A stretch of 64,000 bases of DNA. Origin: Bdellovibrionota bacterium (lineage in GTDB: Bacteria > Bdellovibrionota_C > UBA2361 > JBGSMV01). Below the pieces are notes generated by a model, which saw only the letters and a program-made list of their open reading frames with translations, searched no databases and was not told where the DNA came from. This document shows, in pieces, positions 13,064-27,479 of the stretch; the stretch's first letter is position 1, and every line of letters begins with the position of its first letter. The stretch lies in assembly GCA_041739995.1 (NCBI GenBank), contig JBGSMV010000042.1, positions 46,046-110,045 of the forward strand, given 5' to 3'. Both the position numbers and the translations under genes were made by a program.

Positions 13064-13969
13064 CTAGGCGATATCTTTAAGGTTTTCTACGATCATAGTA
13101 CCCACGCCTTCGTTTAAGAACAGCTCCATGAGCAAAGAGTCACTCCTGGTTCCGTCTATTATATGGGCGCGGTGCACACCGCCCTTTATCGCTTCAAGGC
13201 AAGCTTGGACTTTGGGCAACATGCCCGCCGTAACCTTGCCCGCTTCGACCATATCTTGAATCTGTTCAATATCAGCGTAGGAGACCAAAGAGGTTGGTTC
13301 AGATACGGAACGAAGCAGTCCAGGAACGTTCGAAAGTACGATCAGTTTTTCAGCGCCGATCGATTGTGCGACCTTAGAAGCAAGTGTGTCGGCATTGATA
13401 TTAAAAATCTGCCCGCTCGTGCTCGCCGCTATCGGTGAAATTACAGGGACAAGATTTTCCTTAAGAAACTTGCCTATCAGCTCCGTATTTATGGACTCGA
13501 TCACGCCGACGTTCTCGAAGTCCACTAATTCAGTGCCGCCTTGATCTGATTGGACACGAAGTGGGGGACGCTTTGACGCAAGCACGATTTGAGCATCGGC
13601 ACCCGAAAGCCCTAGTGCACGCACTCCATGTTTACCGAGTGCCGTGGTTACTGATGTGGCCAGTTCGCCACAGAACACCATTACGGCAGCCTTCAGCGTC
13701 TGGTCGTCGGTGATACGTCGGCCCGCCTTTTTTACGGTCTCTAGCCCAAGTCTTTTGCTCAGCACATCAAGCTGAGGGCCACCACCGTGTATCAGCACAA
13801 CCTTCATGCCAATGTGATGAATCAAGCTAATCTGACGGGCGACGTTTTCAAGTACCGCTCCAGTGCAGAGTTCGCCGCCAAGTTTTAGGACAAATGTCTT
13901 GCCCTGAAACTCACGTACATAAGGGAGAATTTCTGTAAGCGCTTCGATACGGTTCATGGTGTTCCTCAT
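13064..13969 (-). CDS. argB: N-acylglutamate kinase
   Basis: LPYVREFQGKTFVLKLGG, IHGGGPQ, NINAD, GMLPKV, C-terminal ELFLNEGVGT. Confidence 0.95.
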   Translation of the reverse strand: MRNTMNRIEALTEILPYVREFQGKTFVLKLGGELCTGAVLENVARQISLIHHIGMKVVLIHGGGPQLDVLSKRLGLETVKKAGRRITDDQTLKAAVMVFCGELATSVTTALGKHGVRALGLSGADAQIVLASKRPPLRVQSDQGGTELVDFENVGVIESINTELIGKFLKENLVPVISPIAASTSGQIFNINADTLASKVAQSIGAEKLIVLSNVPGLLRSVSEPTSLVSYADIEQIQDMVEAGKVTAGMLPKVQACLEAIKGGVHRAHIIDGTRSDSLLMELFLNEGVGTMIVENLKDIA

Positions 13970-13991: not shown

Positions 13992-15023
13992 TCACAGGTC
14001 AGTTTTAAGAATTTTTAAAAGCAAAGCATTCTGGGCGTGCATTCGGTTCGCCGCTTGCTGCTCAGTAAGGCTGCGTTTGCTGTCCAGTACTTCATCCGCT
14101 ACTTCAACGTTCCGTCTTACCGGTAGGCAGTGCATGAAGTAAGAATCATTTCCGTGAGCCATGACTTCCTGGTCCATTATCCAAGGAAGCAACGACTTGC
14201 GATGTTCTAGTTCAAGTTCGCGGTGTCCTATAAAGCCAGGAGGTGTCCAACTCTTTGCGTATACAATATCAGCTCCTCGAACCGCCTGTTCTTGCTCATA
14301 GAAGACCTCGACGGATCCACCAGAACTGCCTGCGGCACTCTGAATCATAGACATTATCTTTGGATCGAAGTCGTAGCCTTCCGGATGGGCAATGCGCAGT
14401 TGCAGCCCAAGTTGTGCGGCAATCAGCGCCGTGGAGTGAGGAACCGCAAGAGGAAGTTGTTTGGGGTGCGGTGCCCAAGAGAGGGTAAAAACCTTGCCGT
14501 GTAGCTTGTTGCCGAAAGTTTCGCGCAATGTGAGGGCATCGGCCAAGGCCTGACAGGGATGCCAGCAGCTTCCTTCCATACTAATAAGGGGAATATCAAG
14601 ATGCTTGGTGAAGGCCGAGAGCACTGGTTCATCTCGGTCTTCCTCCCAAGAGGAAAGCTTGGAGAATGCTCTGACGCACACCGCATCAAAGTACTGAGAA
14701 AGCACTCCCGCTGCATCTTTGATGTGCTCAGTGCGGTCCCTATACATCATGGCACCGTCCGCAAATTCCAGAGTCCACGAGTCGGCTCCTGGGGAGAGGA
14801 CGACCGATTGTCCGCCGAGGCGAGCAATACCGGACTGAAAGGAGGCTCTAGTGCGCAGAGACGGGTTAAAAAACATAAGAGCAAGTACTCGCCCTGAAAG
14901 AGACGAGGAGAAGTCACGCCAGTGGCTTGATTTTCCCTTGGCTGCGAGTGCAAGGGCTTCGTCCAGCTCTTGGAGCGTCAAATCTGAAGTGCTTATAATT
15001 GATCTAGAAGATTTAGAAACCAT
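13992..15023 (-). CDS. argF: N-acyl-ornithine carbamoyltransferase ArgF' (succinyl-type signature)
   Basis: FFNPSLRT, WTLEF..EHIKD, HPCQ, WAPHPKQLPLAV, HCLPVRRN motifs of the AOTCase/SOTCase group. Confidence 0.92.
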   Translation of the reverse strand: MVSKSSRSIISTSDLTLQELDEALALAAKGKSSHWRDFSSSLSGRVLALMFFNPSLRTRASFQSGIARLGGQSVVLSPGADSWTLEFADGAMMYRDRTEHIKDAAGVLSQYFDAVCVRAFSKLSSWEEDRDEPVLSAFTKHLDIPLISMEGSCWHPCQALADALTLRETFGNKLHGKVFTLSWAPHPKQLPLAVPHSTALIAAQLGLQLRIAHPEGYDFDPKIMSMIQSAAGSSGGSVEVFYEQEQAVRGADIVYAKSWTPPGFIGHRELELEHRKSLLPWIMDQEVMAHGNDSYFMHCLPVRRNVEVADEVLDSKRSLTEQQAANRMHAQNALLLKILKTDL

Positions 15024-15076: not shown

Positions 15077-16183
15077 TTACGGGAAAAGTGCGGCTGCGCA
15101 GAGCCCGGTAGTCTCAGGGATGTGGTACATCAAATTCATGTTTTGAATGGCATTTCCTGCGGCACCCTTTACCAGATTATCTAGCGTACTAATGACTACG
15201 ACTTCGCTTCCTTGTTGCCGAACGGTTATGTCACAGAAATTTGAGCCGCGTACATCGAGCACCCGTGGAGTAACGTCTCTATAGCGCATGAAGAACTCAG
15301 TCGCGCAGAATTTCCGGTAGAGTTCGACTACATCTACAGAGCCGTCGGGAATGGTAACGAAGCTTGTGGAATAGATTCCTCGCGAGAAGTTGCCAGAATG
15401 TGGAACCAGATGAATCTTGGTAGCGCCACTTTGCGCGAGGGAGAGCGCTTGCTCGATTTCTGGGCCGTGCCTATGAGTCAGTACCTCATATGAACTCATG
15501 GATTCGTTTCTTGCTGGGTGATGTGTTTTGGCGGTGGCGGTCACGCCACTACCTGTGGATCCAGTCACCGCTGAGACTCTCGCAACAAGTGGATGTTTGC
15601 CAAAGTGAAGAACTAAAGGGAGAAGTCCCAGCGTTACGCAGTTTGCAAAGCAGCCTGGGTTTGCCACTAGTCGAGCAGACTTTATGCCGTCACGGGAAAC
15701 CTCCGGCGTGCCATACACCGCCTCGGCAATCAGTTCAGGGCAGGGGTGCTGTTGTTTATAAAACTGACTAAAGTGTTCAGCGGAAAGTCGAAAGTCTGCC
15801 CCTAGATCAATGATTCGCAGATCGCCCGAGACAAAACGCTCACATTTGGATATGGCGCCGATAACCGGAGACGACTGAGCGTGAGGTACTGCAAAGAACA
15901 ACAAATCAAGTTCCGCAAAAGCGCTATCGAGCACTTCGATAGGTGAGCCAAGCGCTGGTGGTTCAACAAAGATGAGGGGGCAAAGTCCTTCAAGCGACGG
16001 ATGCACTGACGCCACGCTTTTCCCGGCATACTCTCTGGAGGTGACAAGGGCTAGATCCGCTTGGACATGGTTTAAAAGCAGGCGCATGAGCTCTAGACCG
16101 ACGTAGCCCGAGCCTCCGAATACGCCTACTTTGAGCGGTGCTCCACTCGAGGGCTGCCTCTGGTTTTCTAGAGACCTCTTCAT
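15077..16183 (-). CDS. argC: N-acyl-gamma-glutamyl-phosphate reductase
   Basis: GGSGYVG, IDLGADFRL, VANPGCF, DNLVKGAAGNAIQNMN. Confidence 0.96.
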   Translation of the reverse strand: MKRSLENQRQPSSGAPLKVGVFGGSGYVGLELMRLLLNHVQADLALVTSREYAGKSVASVHPSLEGLCPLIFVEPPALGSPIEVLDSAFAELDLLFFAVPHAQSSPVIGAISKCERFVSGDLRIIDLGADFRLSAEHFSQFYKQQHPCPELIAEAVYGTPEVSRDGIKSARLVANPGCFANCVTLGLLPLVLHFGKHPLVARVSAVTGSTGSGVTATAKTHHPARNESMSSYEVLTHRHGPEIEQALSLAQSGATKIHLVPHSGNFSRGIYSTSFVTIPDGSVDVVELYRKFCATEFFMRYRDVTPRVLDVRGSNFCDITVRQQGSEVVVISTLDNLVKGAAGNAIQNMNLMYHIPETTGLCAAALFP

Positions 16184-17244
16184 GGAAGCTCCTCACCGAA
16201 AACTTGCTTGTATACAATCCCTGCGAACTCCCTGCCATCGCGCATAGCATTAGCTGCCTGCAATTTGAGTCTTGAACGAATGAAGTTTTTGCCCACGTCA
16301 TTATCTGTGCAGGGGCCACAAATCACGGTTATTTCGTGGCATGGATGGTCGGACGGGAGGTTCGACAAGAACTCGTGAGCGCCCCAAGCAGCTACTGGAT
16401 CGTTTGCACTTACCACGTGGGCAGAGGTAAATTTCATAATCTCTGGATCAGAAAGAATCGACATTGTGCCGTACTCGCCCATGATGCCGTCACCAAGTTC
16501 TAACACGATGCAGTCTGGCTTCTTCTCGCTGAGAGCTGCGATGACGCCTTTTGCTGAAGTAACTGCGTTGTCCGCAGTTGAAGTAACTATACCCGCGTCG
16601 GTAAAGTTCAGCACCGCGACTGCGCCGCAATCTGCCATTGCAAGCGTATCGCGCATTAGGCTTACGCCCGTGAGCTTTGCCGCGCAGACCTTCTTCCCGG
16701 CGCGAGTAATGTGTTTCACCAACTCACAGGCCGCTCTGGTTTTCCCAGCATCCATGCAAGTTCCAGAAATAACAATGAGTGGGGCGGCGTGGGGCAGGTC
16801 TTGTCGGGGGCGAATTTCGCCTTCGAGAATGGACGCTGGGGAACCGACACGTTGCAGAAAGTTAGGAAAATGCTGTACTGCTCCAAGCACTTCCATGTCT
16901 ATGGGACGTCCGAGTTCAGCGTTGTCGCTAGTGCACTTGCCGACCACGCCTCCCAGATTCAGTATCTGCAACGTTTCACCGACCTTAATGGATTGAGGCA
17001 CAATGCCACTGAATCCCTTTAAGGCGTTACGGGGACCCAAGACGCCAACTACGACGTCATCACGATAGAGGCGGCTCATGCGCCCGGAAGCCAGCTCGAT
17101 GGTGTTATAGTCAGAGCGCTCGTTGAGCAGGCGCCCAGCGATGATGAAGCCCTCTTTCGCGGTGATGTCGGGTGAAAGCGTGAGCTCAGACGAGAGCTTG
17201 GCGTTTCGAGCGGCGGAAGCGATTTTATCAGCGACAATTTTCAT
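16180..17244 (-). CDS. DUF1611-like P-loop protein
   Basis: SGTCMDAGKT P-loop, AAKLTG, ELGDG; stop overlaps argC start (ATGA). Confidence 0.7.
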   Translation of the reverse strand: MKIVADKIASAARNAKLSSELTLSPDITAKEGFIIAGRLLNERSDYNTIELASGRMSRLYRDDVVVGVLGPRNALKGFSGIVPQSIKVGETLQILNLGGVVGKCTSDNAELGRPIDMEVLGAVQHFPNFLQRVGSPASILEGEIRPRQDLPHAAPLIVISGTCMDAGKTRAACELVKHITRAGKKVCAAKLTGVSLMRDTLAMADCGAVAVLNFTDAGIVTSTADNAVTSAKGVIAALSEKKPDCIVLELGDGIMGEYGTMSILSDPEIMKFTSAHVVSANDPVAAWGAHEFLSNLPSDHPCHEITVICGPCTDNDVGKNFIRSRLKLQAANAMRDGREFAGIVYKQVFGEELP

Positions 17245-17264: not shown

Positions 17265-17918
17265 TCACTTAAGCTTGGGGCTCTCTCGTCCAGAGATTGA
17301 ATTCAGAATTCGTAGGGTGCGAGGCGCGTCTTCCTCGGTCACCACCATCATGAGCTCAGTCCAGCAGCTCATCTCTTCGACCACGTTCACTCCCTGCTCA
17401 GCGAGCACCCCGTAGATGAACGACACCACCCCGGGGGTTGATTCTAGGCGCTCATCAAACAGCATTGAGATTTGAACGAGGTCAGCGCTGGTCTTTTTTA
17501 TCTTACCTCGGAACTGTGCGCGAATTTCGGGTAGGTAATCCTGATTGGTGATCAGCACCAACACTTCAGCGCCTTCAATCAGGTGAAAGTCTCCGCGCTC
17601 TTGTCGCACAAAGGACTGAAGGCGATGCAGCTTCTCAAAGTCGCGGGGCTTTTCAACGATGGCAACCGCCATTTGGTTGGTAGTGCGGATCGAGACACTT
17701 TTAAGGAGTGCACGCACCTTGGTCTCAAGCGACTCTTTTCCTTTTACGCGCTCAGAGTAGCGACGGCATGCCACCAGCACAGCATCAAAGTGTTTATCGC
17801 CAAACTCCTCGCAGATTTCCCGTGAGAGCGCAGAATAGTTTATCAGACCGCGCTTAAGGCAGTCCCGCACACTAGGACGCTCTGAGATGTAGTGCTGGGT
17901 GAGGCGGGTGATAGACAT
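17265..17918 (-). CDS. ACT-domain protein with helical N-terminal domain (archaeal-type putative regulator)
   Basis: DCLKRGLINYSALSREI N-terminal motif; C-terminal TPGVVSFIYGVLAEQGVNVVEEMSCWTE ACT signature; start inferred at MSITRL. Confidence 0.8.
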   Translation of the reverse strand: MSITRLTQHYISERPSVRDCLKRGLINYSALSREICEEFGDKHFDAVLVACRRYSERVKGKESLETKVRALLKSVSIRTTNQMAVAIVEKPRDFEKLHRLQSFVRQERGDFHLIEGAEVLVLITNQDYLPEIRAQFRGKIKKTSADLVQISMLFDERLESTPGVVSFIYGVLAEQGVNVVEEMSCWTELMMVVTEEDAPRTLRILNSISGRESPKLK

Positions 17919-17988
17919 GGGCGAGAAAAGAGATTGGGGGTTTGGGCGCGCTGCGCCCGCTATCGATTTCGCAATCTTGGTCAACAGT

Positions 17989-18093
17989 GTCCAGCATTGG
18001 ACTACTCTGATTGTTTATCAATGCGAGCTGCGGATCAAGGGCAACGACAGGTCTCAAGCCCGAAGACGGACATAATTGTCCTATATCGGACAA
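17989..18093. promoter_or_regulatory. Two GTCC-N6-GGAC palindromes in the divergent ACT-gene/argG intergenic region
   Basis: GTCCAGCATTGGAC at 17989-18002; TTGTCCTATATCGGACAA at 18076-18093; extra half-site CGGACA at 18067. Confidence 0.6.
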
Positions 18094-18176
18094 GAGAGTT
18101 CTTCGCAGTTGGAGCTATTCTTGATGTTCGTGATAGCCTTTAGCCTCACGTTACGATCAATCAAGGTGAGCGAGAG

Positions 18177-19394
18177 ATGCCTAAGAAAGTAGTGTTAGCA
18201 TACAGCGGCGGTTTAGATACTTCATTTTGTATTCCCTATCTGAAGGAAGGTGGTTTCGAGGTGACTACCGTAACTGCGGATACGGGAGGATTTTCAGACT
18301 CAGAGCTGAAGACCATTTCGCAGCGATCAAAGGAGCTCGGCGCAACCCAGCATATTACTGTGGATTTGAAGGAGCAGGTGTATCAACGCTTTGTCTCCTA
18401 CGTCATTAAAGGCAATGTGCTGAGAGGGCAAGCGTACCCACTGTGTGTGGGAGCAGAGCGCGGCATCCAAGCCGAGGCTCTTGTAAGAGTGGCTCAGGAA
18501 GTGGGCGCACAGGCCGTGGCGCATGGCTGCACCGGAGCGGGAAACGACCAGGTGCGCTTTGATATTTCTATCAAGAGTCTTGCGGGAAATTTGCAGATTA
18601 TTGCGCCCATTCGTGAACTGGATTTGAGTCGAGAAGAAGAGGTGCGGCGCCTTGCCGAGTGGGGCTTCGATTTTCCAAGCGTAAAAAAGAAGTATTCAGT
18701 AAACCAGGGCATCTTGGGCACGACTATCGGTGGCGGTGAAACGCATGATTCCTGGATGAAGATTCCAGAAGAAGCCTGGGTCATCACCAAGTCACCTGAG
18801 GCTTCCGGAGCTAAACCAGCAGAAATCACCATTAAGTGGGAAGCGGGAATGCCTGTTGAGCTAGACGGCGTCACCTTTTCGAATAAGGATAGCAACAGTC
18901 ATGAGCTCCTTGTGCGCCTGAATGAGCGTGGCGGAGCGCTTGGCGTTGGACGAGGTATTCACATCGGAGACACAGTGCTTGGAATCAAGGGCAGAATAGC
19001 CTTTGAAGCTCCGGGTGCCATGATCTTGATCGCAGCTCACCGTGAGCTTGAGAAGCTTGTGCTCACGAAGTGGCAAATGCAGGTCAAAGACCAGGCGGCC
19101 AGTACATACGGCATGCTGTTGCATGAGGGGCAGTATTTTAATCCTGTAATGCGCGACCTCGAAGCTTTGATGGACTCGAGTCAGAGCATGGTGTCGGGCG
19201 AAACGTTAGTGCGATTGGAACACGGTCAAGTCTCAGTGGTTGGAGTTCGAAGCCGGCATTCTCTGATGGACGCTCGCGCTACCTACGGCGAAGGAGCAAA
19301 GCTCTGGACCGGCGCTCAAGCTGAAGGCTTCTGTCTCATTTCTGGAGTTCAGAGCATGTTGGCTGGGGGACGCAGTACGACTGCGAGGAGCTAA
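18177..19394 (+). CDS. argG: Argininosuccinate synthase
   Basis: VLAYSGGLDTS, HGCTGAGNDQVRF, GIKGRIAFEAP. Confidence 0.97.
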   Translation: MPKKVVLAYSGGLDTSFCIPYLKEGGFEVTTVTADTGGFSDSELKTISQRSKELGATQHITVDLKEQVYQRFVSYVIKGNVLRGQAYPLCVGAERGIQAEALVRVAQEVGAQAVAHGCTGAGNDQVRFDISIKSLAGNLQIIAPIRELDLSREEEVRRLAEWGFDFPSVKKKYSVNQGILGTTIGGGETHDSWMKIPEEAWVITKSPEASGAKPAEITIKWEAGMPVELDGVTFSNKDSNSHELLVRLNERGGALGVGRGIHIGDTVLGIKGRIAFEAPGAMILIAAHRELEKLVLTKWQMQVKDQAASTYGMLLHEGQYFNPVMRDLEALMDSSQSMVSGETLVRLEHGQVSVVGVRSRHSLMDARATYGEGAKLWTGAQAEGFCLISGVQSMLAGGRSTTARS

Positions 19395-26090: not shown

Positions 26091-27479
26091 ATGGTGAGCG
26101 AAGCGGTTACATCTTTAGTTGTCTCTGATACGCAGCGAGCGTTGGATCTAGAGATGGTTCCTTTCGACTTGCAGGCTACGTCTGCCCACGTCGAAATGCT
26201 TGGTACAGTCGGGATCGTTAGCCCTGATGTCTCCCAGAAGATTCTTGCGGCACTTACCGATATTCGTGCCACTTACGAGCGCGGAGAGTTTTCCATTGAT
26301 CCTGCGCTTGGTGCCCAGCTTACCCTTGAAAAGGAGGTCATCAGCCGCGTCGGGCAGGACGTTGGTCTCGCAATGCATACTGGGCGCAGCAGAAACGATC
26401 AGGTGATGGTAACGGAGATGCTGTATCTTCGCTCCAAAAGTAGCCAGATTATAGAGAAGCTAAACCAGGTGGTACAGGCGCTCTATGGGCGCGCTGGTGC
26501 AGGAATCAATGTTCCTATGCCGGGGTATACTCACATGCAGCCTGGCAAGCCGACGGCGCTCAGTCATTGGTACCTTGCACATGGGGACTGCCTTATGCGC
26601 GGAAGGGTAATGCTCGAGCAAGTGCTCGAGCAGTTCAACCAGTGCCCACTTGGATCAGTGGAGTCTTTCGGCACCACCTGGCCGCTTGATCGCTTGTATG
26701 TGGCGCGGCGCTTAGGGTTCGCCCGGGTGTGGGAAGTGCCGCAGGACGCTATTTCTAACAGAGGGATTTTCCAACTCGCACTTTTAGGGGCCCTCAATCA
26801 GGTAGCCATTGGGATTGGAAGAATGGCGGCTGACCTGATGCTGTACACCACACATGAATTTCAAATGGTGGAGCTTGGGGATGAAGTAGCGCAGCGCCTA
26901 CATCCCATTACTGGTAGTTCGGTAATGGCGCAAAAGCGTAATCCCGATGCCTTAGAGCTTTTGCGTGGAAGTGCTGCTCAGTTTGGTGGTCTCTACGCCA
27001 CCGTCAGTTCACTCCTTTGTGGATTGCCGACCGGATACAACCGTGACTCCCGAGAGGTCAAAGAGTACGCGGCAACCGCATTTCGTAAGATGAATGAGAT
27101 GCTGCTTTCATTGGAGCAAGTGGTAGTCACCAGCACATTTGATGCGAAGCGCATGAGTGAAATGGTGGACGATAACTATTCGCTTACCACGGACCTTGCC
27201 GATCAACTGGCGCAAACTACCGGCATTCCATACCGCCGCATGTACAAAATTGTGGGCGTTGCGGTGGATGAGTTGATGCGCACCCGTCAGCCACTGCCGA
27301 AGCTTACGGCTGCTATGTTGAAGCGCTCTGCGGATGCGTTGAGCATTAAACTTGAAGTTGATGATGCGCTGATATCTCGCCTTCTCGACGCGCGCCATGC
27401 CCTTGAACGAAGGGCGCATATTGGCGGCACCGCTAAGCGCAGAGTCGAAGCTATGTTATTGCGACGCCGCTCACTTTAA
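26091..27479 (+). CDS. argH: Argininosuccinate lyase
   Basis: HTGRSRNDQV, MPGYTHMQ, GSSVMAQKRNPDALE, GYNRD. Confidence 0.9.
   Translation: MVSEAVTSLVVSDTQRALDLEMVPFDLQATSAHVEMLGTVGIVSPDVSQKILAALTDIRATYERGEFSIDPALGAQLTLEKEVISRVGQDVGLAMHTGRSRNDQVMVTEMLYLRSKSSQIIEKLNQVVQALYGRAGAGINVPMPGYTHMQPGKPTALSHWYLAHGDCLMRGRVMLEQVLEQFNQCPLGSVESFGTTWPLDRLYVARRLGFARVWEVPQDAISNRGIFQLALLGALNQVAIGIGRMAADLMLYTTHEFQMVELGDEVAQRLHPITGSSVMAQKRNPDALELLRGSAAQFGGLYATVSSLLCGLPTGYNRDSREVKEYAATAFRKMNEMLLSLEQVVVTSTFDAKRMSEMVDDNYSLTTDLADQLAQTTGIPYRRMYKIVGVAVDELMRTRQPLPKLTAAMLKRSADALSIKLEVDDALISRLLDARHALERRAHIGGTAKRRVEAMLLRRRSL

Follow-up and report, generated by a model that had tools for sequence, protein, structure and literature searches.

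We propose, with a probability of roughly 60%, that an ACT-domain protein encoded in an arg locus of a Bdellovibrionota bacterium is a dimeric, arginine-sensing repressor of the divergent argG/DUF1611-argC-argF'-argB units, that it acts via the palindrome at positions 18076-18093, and that it replaces ArgR. All positions refer to the window, the whole 64,000-nucleotide stretch of contig JBGSMV010000042.1 that was analysed. Binding of the protein to this palindrome is very probable and, given such binding, arginine is likely to be the signal. A preliminary description of this DNA had named the gene a candidate non-ArgR regulator of arg genes, a view supported by the presence of a motif near orthologs and by the failure to find ArgR.

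The regulator gene heads a run of a DUF1611-like gene, argC, argF' and argB and diverges from argG, confirming the arrangement first described for this locus (Table 1); argH lies at 26091 in the window. An ORF finder extended the regulator frame to a TTG at 17984 but, because homologs begin at the ATG at 17918, we took the latter as the start. The DUF1611-like gene is locked to argC in nine of the clustered loci and also in an ArgR-type operon (loci L228-L230). In a recent preprint, a distant homolog of a D-glutamate acetyltransferase is the predicted stand-in for ArgA, and such a DUF1611-like gene is predicted to be an alternative N-succinylglutamate synthase (10.1101/2024.10.14.618325). Matched to the preprint's gene by description, the window gene is a predicted ArgA substitute. 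The literature yielded nothing on a link between DUF1611 and arginine, and ArgJ was not found in this genome. Elsewhere in the genome (locus L236, C64:208000-216000), a LysW-type cluster contains LysX-like, argC-like, GATase_4-like, amino-acid kinase and argD-like aminotransferase genes; it is a possible source of the aminotransferase activity for which the arg operon has no gene. A short GNAT gene, possibly a short ArgA, is present at loci L016, L019, L045, L067 and L079; such a gene diverges from the regulator in genomes G009 and G038, and in L045 it is placed between argG and argH.

Table 1. Coordinates of the arg genes, regulator domains and candidate operator elements in the window.
Feature	Positions	Strand	Remarks
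Regulator gene (DUF7523 helical domain + two ACT domains), 217 aa	17265..17918	-	ATG start
N-terminal helical domain, residues 1-75, Pfam DUF7523	17694..17918	-	
Tandem ACT pair, aspartokinase regulatory fold	17295..17693	-	candidate amino-acid pocket (inferred)
DUF1611-like P-loop protein, predicted ArgA substitute	16180..17244	-	second operon gene
argC	15077..16183	-	TIGR01850 over cut-off
argF' (N-acetylornithine carbamoyltransferase family)	13992..15023	-	NF003384 over cut-off
argB	13064..13969	-	TIGR00761 over cut-off
argG, divergent target	18177..19394	+	TIGR00032 over cut-off
Main candidate operator TTGTCC-N6-GGACAA	18076..18093	.	22.1 bits; genome's best motif match
Weak second palindrome	17987..18004	.	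8.3 bits; ~70 bp upstream of regulator start
Half-site, regulator side	18067..18073	.	CGGACA at 18067-18072; 20 bp from main site
Half-site, argG side	18097..18102	.	offset -9 from main site

The intergenic region had been said to hold two palindromes of identical geometry. Both are present, GTCC-agcatt-GGAC at 17989-18002 and GTCC-tatatc-GGAC at 18078-18091, and the latter does extend to TTGTCC/GGACAA; they are not of equal standing, since the extended site is strong at 22.1 bits and the other marginal at 8.3. The further CGGACA half-site, 20 bp before the CGGACA at 18087, was recovered as well, and the remark that these elements do not resemble ARG boxes proved right, the best intergenic match to an ARG box having three mismatches. 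Scored with a matrix derived from other genomes, the 18076 site ranked first in the 3.8-Mb genome (next match 15.3 bits), and block-shuffled genomes gave one to three matches at 16 bits or more. The long form occurs once in the genome. The short form GTCC-N6-GGAC occurs 55 times versus 23-48 for other spacers (0 to 13), and is unspecific because it is frequent at other spacers too and is inflated by a dispersed repeat. This repeat, roughly 90-100 bp long, REP- or MITE-like and present in at least 11 copies in this genome, contains GTCC-N6-GGAC; copies lie at C23:47955, C32:78122, C42:73447, C60:50557, C64:317829, C67:59629, C67:109471, C77:49674, C79:54609, C79:134368 and C81:15543.

Unseeded palindromic sampling on the upstream regions of 79 of 80 loci (L114, with no upstream DNA, was dropped, and this genome was excluded) returned an 18-bp motif, WTGTYY-N-A-W-W-T-N-RRACAW. 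The motif scored 16.7 bits versus 7.4-7.5 in three shuffled sets and was reached by 3 of 12 starts. Sites of at least 12 bits were detected at 71 of the 79 training loci and in none of the downstream control regions. Held-out loci came from another archaeal class, that of G071, which is probably Thermoplasmatota though labelled a Methanobacteriota archaeon; 14 of these 29 had a site upstream and none had one downstream. Conservation of the motif near orthologs, a check named in the preliminary description, was thus observed in both sets. The 15 held-out loci without a site count against the repressor reading, as do the 35 of 80 loci without a core arg gene nearby. Core arg genes, detected by tblastn and possibly including some argD and argH paralogs, were found at the other 45 of 80 and at 25 of the 29 held-out loci. 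The most constant neighbours are argG (39 loci) and argH (35 loci), and in the usual layout of DPANN archaea argH-argG face away from the regulator. In an archaeal sub-branch (L097, L104, L105, L110) the regulator faces an amino-acid racemase, not argG, and in three of these four loci a 258-aa unknown gene lies between the two.

Aligned operators were compound, with a half-site at offset -9 (18/28 bacterial and 24/43 archaeal operators) and, at a distance of 30 bp, a weaker palindrome (15/28 and 25/43), both on the side away from the regulator. The window keeps the -9 half-site, its -30 palindrome is degenerate, and it carries an extra half-site and a second site on the regulator side. The regulator-side half-site at 18067 is found in a few close relatives and is not family-wide; a same-genus relative has a 9.5-bit site at a position like that of the window's 17987 site.

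The motif also accompanied the regulator in trans. Of 19 strong-ortholog genomes, 11 had a site of at least 10 bits in the 300 bp upstream of argG, versus 0 of 27 others (11/20 and 0/26 if G027, which carries a contig-end ortholog fragment, is counted). Six of the 11 sites belonged to the motif training set; the informative ones are those of this genome and of the four genomes in which the regulator is unlinked to argG (G006, G026 and G037, from one genus, and G055). No site was detected before argG in the remaining eight (G002, G003, where the contig ends, G009, G018, G020, G038, G041 and G054), and G015 has the ortholog with no argG match. Outside the order, G061 had four exact pattern matches in 5.1 Mb: a 21-bit site precedes an unlinked argG by 106 bp, and another match is inside the gene diverging from argC. 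G070 has a match where argS begins, next to a further member of the family. Exact matches in G062-G065 numbered 20, 6, 5 and 5 versus 0, 4, 2 and 2 for the reversed pattern, and were mostly at non-arg genes (minC, dinB, bioB-like, folE2) or repeats, which counts against an arginine regulon there. Several of the 20 matches in G062, the genome of L052, are at contig ends with identical sequence; the G062 set is either an expanded non-arginine regulon or a repeat. From the G062-G065 matches, the eight argG genes without a site and G015, we infer that parts of the clade keep autoregulation with a lost or changed regulon.

In this genome, 44 matches of at least 10 bits were counted versus 47-65 in shuffles. 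A wider regulon here was rejected, the count being no higher than in shuffles and no match lying before argH or carA. A scan for the motif at other arg genes, a check named in the preliminary description, gave no further site in this genome; since argH, carA and the argD-like gene all lack sites, the regulon in this genome appears to be the divergent pair only. Matches of 10.8 and 12.0 bits in the LysW-type cluster sit inside genes.

Position supplies the strongest single clue. In genus g26 (L228-L230), argR lies between argG and the DUF1611-like/argC genes, that is, in the regulator's slot in the same operon; identity to the window is 43-44% for the DUF1611-like gene and 54% for argG. Each of these three loci has two ARG-like boxes with one or two mismatches and no site of the regulator motif. 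ArgR was not found in the window's genome, which is 91% complete: neither the regulator protein nor the genome matched PF01316 (N-terminal Arg_repressor), and there was no match to PF02863 (Arg_repressor_C). Among 61 genomes of the order, 20 carried a strong ortholog (E 2.5e-49 or better) and 10 carried ArgR, the two occurring together only in G009 and G038. The regulator shares with ArgR/AhrC its operon slot and targets, and likewise pairs a helical, putatively DNA-binding part with an alpha/beta effector part; the folds are weakly alike (1b4a, Z 7.4, rmsd 7.1, 126 aligned). They differ in that the regulator has two ACT domains and ArgR one ArgR core, that the regulator is a predicted dimer whereas ArgR is a hexamer, and in their operators, TGTYY-N6-RRACA versus TGAAT-N4-ATTCA.

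A second correlation came from 26 more distant loci, which form a separate branch (support 100) whose helix 44-58 and ACT loop differ from those of the arginine clade. None of the 26 reached 12 bits with the arginine matrix. TGTTR-type palindromes, by a pattern written after the sites were seen, were present at 14 of the 26 loci versus 0 of 110 arginine-clade loci. Divergent neighbours in this branch point to lysine: dapA and asd (L286, L288 and the partial locus L290), lysA (L271, L284, L285) and a homocitrate or isopropylmalate synthase (L226); other loci adjoin GNAT, racemase-unrelated or unknown genes. L275 adjoins lysX and L225 a serB-like gene. Operator, candidate reading helix, ligand loop and pathway therefore change together, as direct binding predicts, in a comparison of two clades only. 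The ArgR swap, for its part, is that of one genus, and in neither case are kin independent.

The protein matched Pfam DUF7523 (PF24367) over residues 5-75 (32.9 bits, cut-off 27) and has a C-terminal ACT region, with weak ACT_7/ACT_9 matches at residues 157-206. Its nearest Atlas cluster was 'UCP014439, ACT family' (score 0.96), a family presumably also named PIRSF014439 and APE1894. Public labels often call DUF7523/UCP014439 members 'aspartokinase', and no description of family or motif was found in a search that had most subscription papers and RegPrecise outside its reach. A structure model built with 114 sequences (pLDDT 94.8) comprised five N-terminal helices and two interleaved ACT domains of aspartokinase type. 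Residues 70-210 matched aspartokinase regulatory domains (Foldseek E 1e-8; Z 14.2, rmsd 2.5, 139 aligned). The N-terminal domain alone had no Foldseek match at E 0.001; its best Z was 5.9 (FF domains, rmsd 2.4, 68 aligned) with homeodomain rows at 4.3-5.1, and in Foldseek and VIA-align Z values of 4-6 did not separate FF, homeodomain and other helical bundles. No known DNA-binding fold was matched, a result that speaks neither for a new fold nor for a different one. Residues N27, L31, R33 and R53 of this domain are invariant and A46, A50 and R52 nearly so; the ACT pair conserves G163, N178 and S184. Helix 44-58 is a candidate DNA-reading helix.

Two copies of the protein were predicted to associate with a score of 0.79 versus 0.00 for the best of three controls; runs shared 93% or more of their contacts, and pLDDT was 86 or higher. 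For comparison, 20 of 30 solved pairs passed the mark, as did 1 of 23 single chains. We treat the regulator as a predicted homodimer, although the pass may reflect likeness to ACT dimers. The contacts named by the prediction include residues 9-34 and, in the ACT part, residues 162-190, but not helix 44-58.

The aspartokinase regulatory (beta) subunit has the same tandem ACT fold, with PG, N and S positions conserved in both. Unlike aspartokinase, the regulator has no kinase domain (no AA_kinase match; 18.6 bits against the TIGR00656 cut-off of 402) and adds the N-terminal helical domain. A protein whose only fold match is to enzyme regulatory domains could be the allosteric subunit of an arginine enzyme, and stand-alone ACT proteins do serve in this way (10.1101/2024.10.14.618325). 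The palindrome would then belong to another factor or be a promoter feature. This is very improbable, since the motif accompanies the regulator gene even where arg enzymes are not nearby, does not precede argG in genomes that lack the regulator gene, changes with the protein clade, and is the same in bacteria and archaea despite their different promoters; the invariant arginines of the N-terminal domain also speak against it. Among DNA-binding families, Lrp/AsnC proteins have a RAM domain where the regulator has two ACT domains in the model, and no Pfam match to the AsnC HTH plus RAM was detected in the regulator at E up to 1.

The proposed recognition of arginine by such a fold has a eukaryotic parallel. 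CASTOR1 carries four ACT domains in one chain and acts on a protein partner, not on DNA. Its aspartokinase-like ACT domains bind arginine, making it the mTORC1 arginine sensor (PMC5187391). The regulator weakly matches ACT_7 and aligned with CASTOR2 at Z 8.1 (rmsd 3.3, 132 aligned) and with CASTOR1 at Z 7.6 (rmsd 3.7, 135 aligned); as these matches are weaker than those to aspartokinases, they show no special kinship with CASTOR.

The signal could also be something other than arginine, such as ornithine, citrulline, an acylated intermediate or several amino acids, read by an operator-binding sensor that is often mainly autoregulatory. Orthologs that persist without linked arg genes or, in G015, without argG, the sites at non-arg genes in G062-G065, and the coexistence of regulator gene and ArgR in G009 and G038 would all fit such a sensor. 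We nevertheless consider it quite unlikely: the most constant neighbours, argG and argH, encode the last two steps, argS has a site in G070, and the arginine and lysine clades have different ACT loops.

Whether the bound protein would repress or activate was judged from promoter geometry. Of 43 archaeal loci, 24 have a TATA-like box that starts -1 to +2 nt from the main site, and 26 have one 4-6 nt from the weak site on the argG side. Since the TATA boxes abut the sites, a bound protein would cover both BRE positions. In bacteria, a -35-like hexamer lies inside the site in five related loci (L051, L054, L055, L058, L059), and site and promoter overlap in 20 of 28 loci versus 30% in shuffled sequences, a count inflated because the half-site resembles TTGACA. 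A repressing dimer is favoured because of this coverage of the BRE positions in archaea and of the -35-like hexamer in bacteria. A strict promoter scan of 17850-18250 found no promoter.

The same protein and operator could instead activate arg genes when arginine is short, as do archaeal LysM and Tar, or the protein could repress itself while activating argG. Archaeal activators bind just upstream of the BRE (PMC2995911, PMC6737238). A TATA box 10 nt from the site, as found in 8 of 43 archaeal loci, suits an activator and counts against repression, and the best argG promoter-like match in the window (8/12, -35 at 18130) is ~37 bp beyond the main site. Activation in either form is nonetheless unlikely, since most archaeal sites abut the TATA box and would cover the BRE, the regulator gene occupies the slot of a repressor, ArgR, and activation would need a different polymerase contact in bacteria whereas blocking would work in both domains.

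In the proposed repression mechanism, the N-terminal helices of the dimer would read the two RRACA half-sites, and arginine would sit where ACT domains of the two subunits meet, the place that amino acids occupy in aspartokinase. Occupancy of the strong site alone would autorepress the regulator promoter. With arginine, the protein would also occupy the half-site and the weaker palindrome, which lies 30 bp away on the argG side, thereby covering the argG promoter.

A precedent among archaeal regulators is TrpY, which is built of an HTH plus ACT; it uses tryptophan and TRP boxes, and the regulator showed no TrpY family match in Pfam or NCBIfam. In Methanothermobacter, TrpY represses itself without tryptophan and both divergent units with it, and its amino-acid response at a divergent promoter pair resembles the mechanism proposed here (PMC6737238). 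Tar and the Lrp-family LysM/FL11 are likewise archaeal regulators of amino-acid synthesis, and FL11 binds Lys and Arg (PMC2995911). Tar (TK0271) binds TGGACA-N8-TGTCCA, half-sites like those of the regulator but facing the opposite way; its homologs are called MarR-like, and it activates without response to end products (PMC6737238). Tar was rejected as a member of the same family, judged from that paper's description only.

The named records closest to the regulator are from Bdellovibrionota or Oligoflexia, at 59-74% identity; Woesearchaeota and other DPANN archaea come next. The nearest relatives outside Bdellovibrionota are thus archaeal, and the earlier term 'archaeal-type' is fair. The family comprised 1,311 clusters (50% identity) at E 1e-10 or better. 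In two quick trees, bacterial rows nested among Woesearchaeales-type rows (support 95-99); both trees were made without rows L022, L023, L225 and L275, and two clades were thinned. An AU test on 45 rows did not reject archaeal monophyly (p = 0.28), so the trees do not show the direction of transfer. No fused forms were found at E 1e-8 among 7,996 longer candidates, which is weak evidence. Three proteins of ~480 aa (P0218, P0245, P0255) have two matched stretches each, P0218 resembling a tandem duplicate of the whole regulator. The window's genome also encodes a distant paralog (C58:41729-42496, minus strand), which aligns in part at 26% identity. By eye, its neighbours are a photolyase-like gene and a MoxR-like operon, and no clear palindrome was visible. 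In Natrinema, the copy has cysS rather than arg genes nearby. A distant family member also occurs in a genetically tractable host, Haloferax volcanii, where a match to PF24367 exceeds the cut-off.

These elements can be joined into a broader reading, which we hold as tentative and at less than even odds. The family may consist of amino-acid-sensing transcription factors with a new DNA-binding helical domain, its clades reading arginine, lysine or serine via matching palindromes. The arginine branch may have passed from Woesearchaeales-type archaea to Bdellovibrionota, where it would have displaced ArgR in place, and it may repress archaeal BRE/TATA and bacterial sigma-70 promoters from the same operator. 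If true, arginine sensing in the manner of CASTOR1, by an ACT pair of aspartokinase type, would have a prokaryotic counterpart.

One-component amino-acid sensors are a known kind of regulator; the family, its domain pairing and its operator appear to be absent from print. If the repressor reading is true, it would provide a function, a binding site and a candidate ligand for a large unannotated and often mislabelled family, and would be a clear case of one operon exchanging its regulator, in the same slot, for an unrelated one. An as yet unclassified domain would then bind DNA, and an aspartokinase-type ACT pair would recognise arginine in organisms other than eukaryotes. The reading would also explain how arginine synthesis is controlled in many archaea and some bacteria without ArgR.
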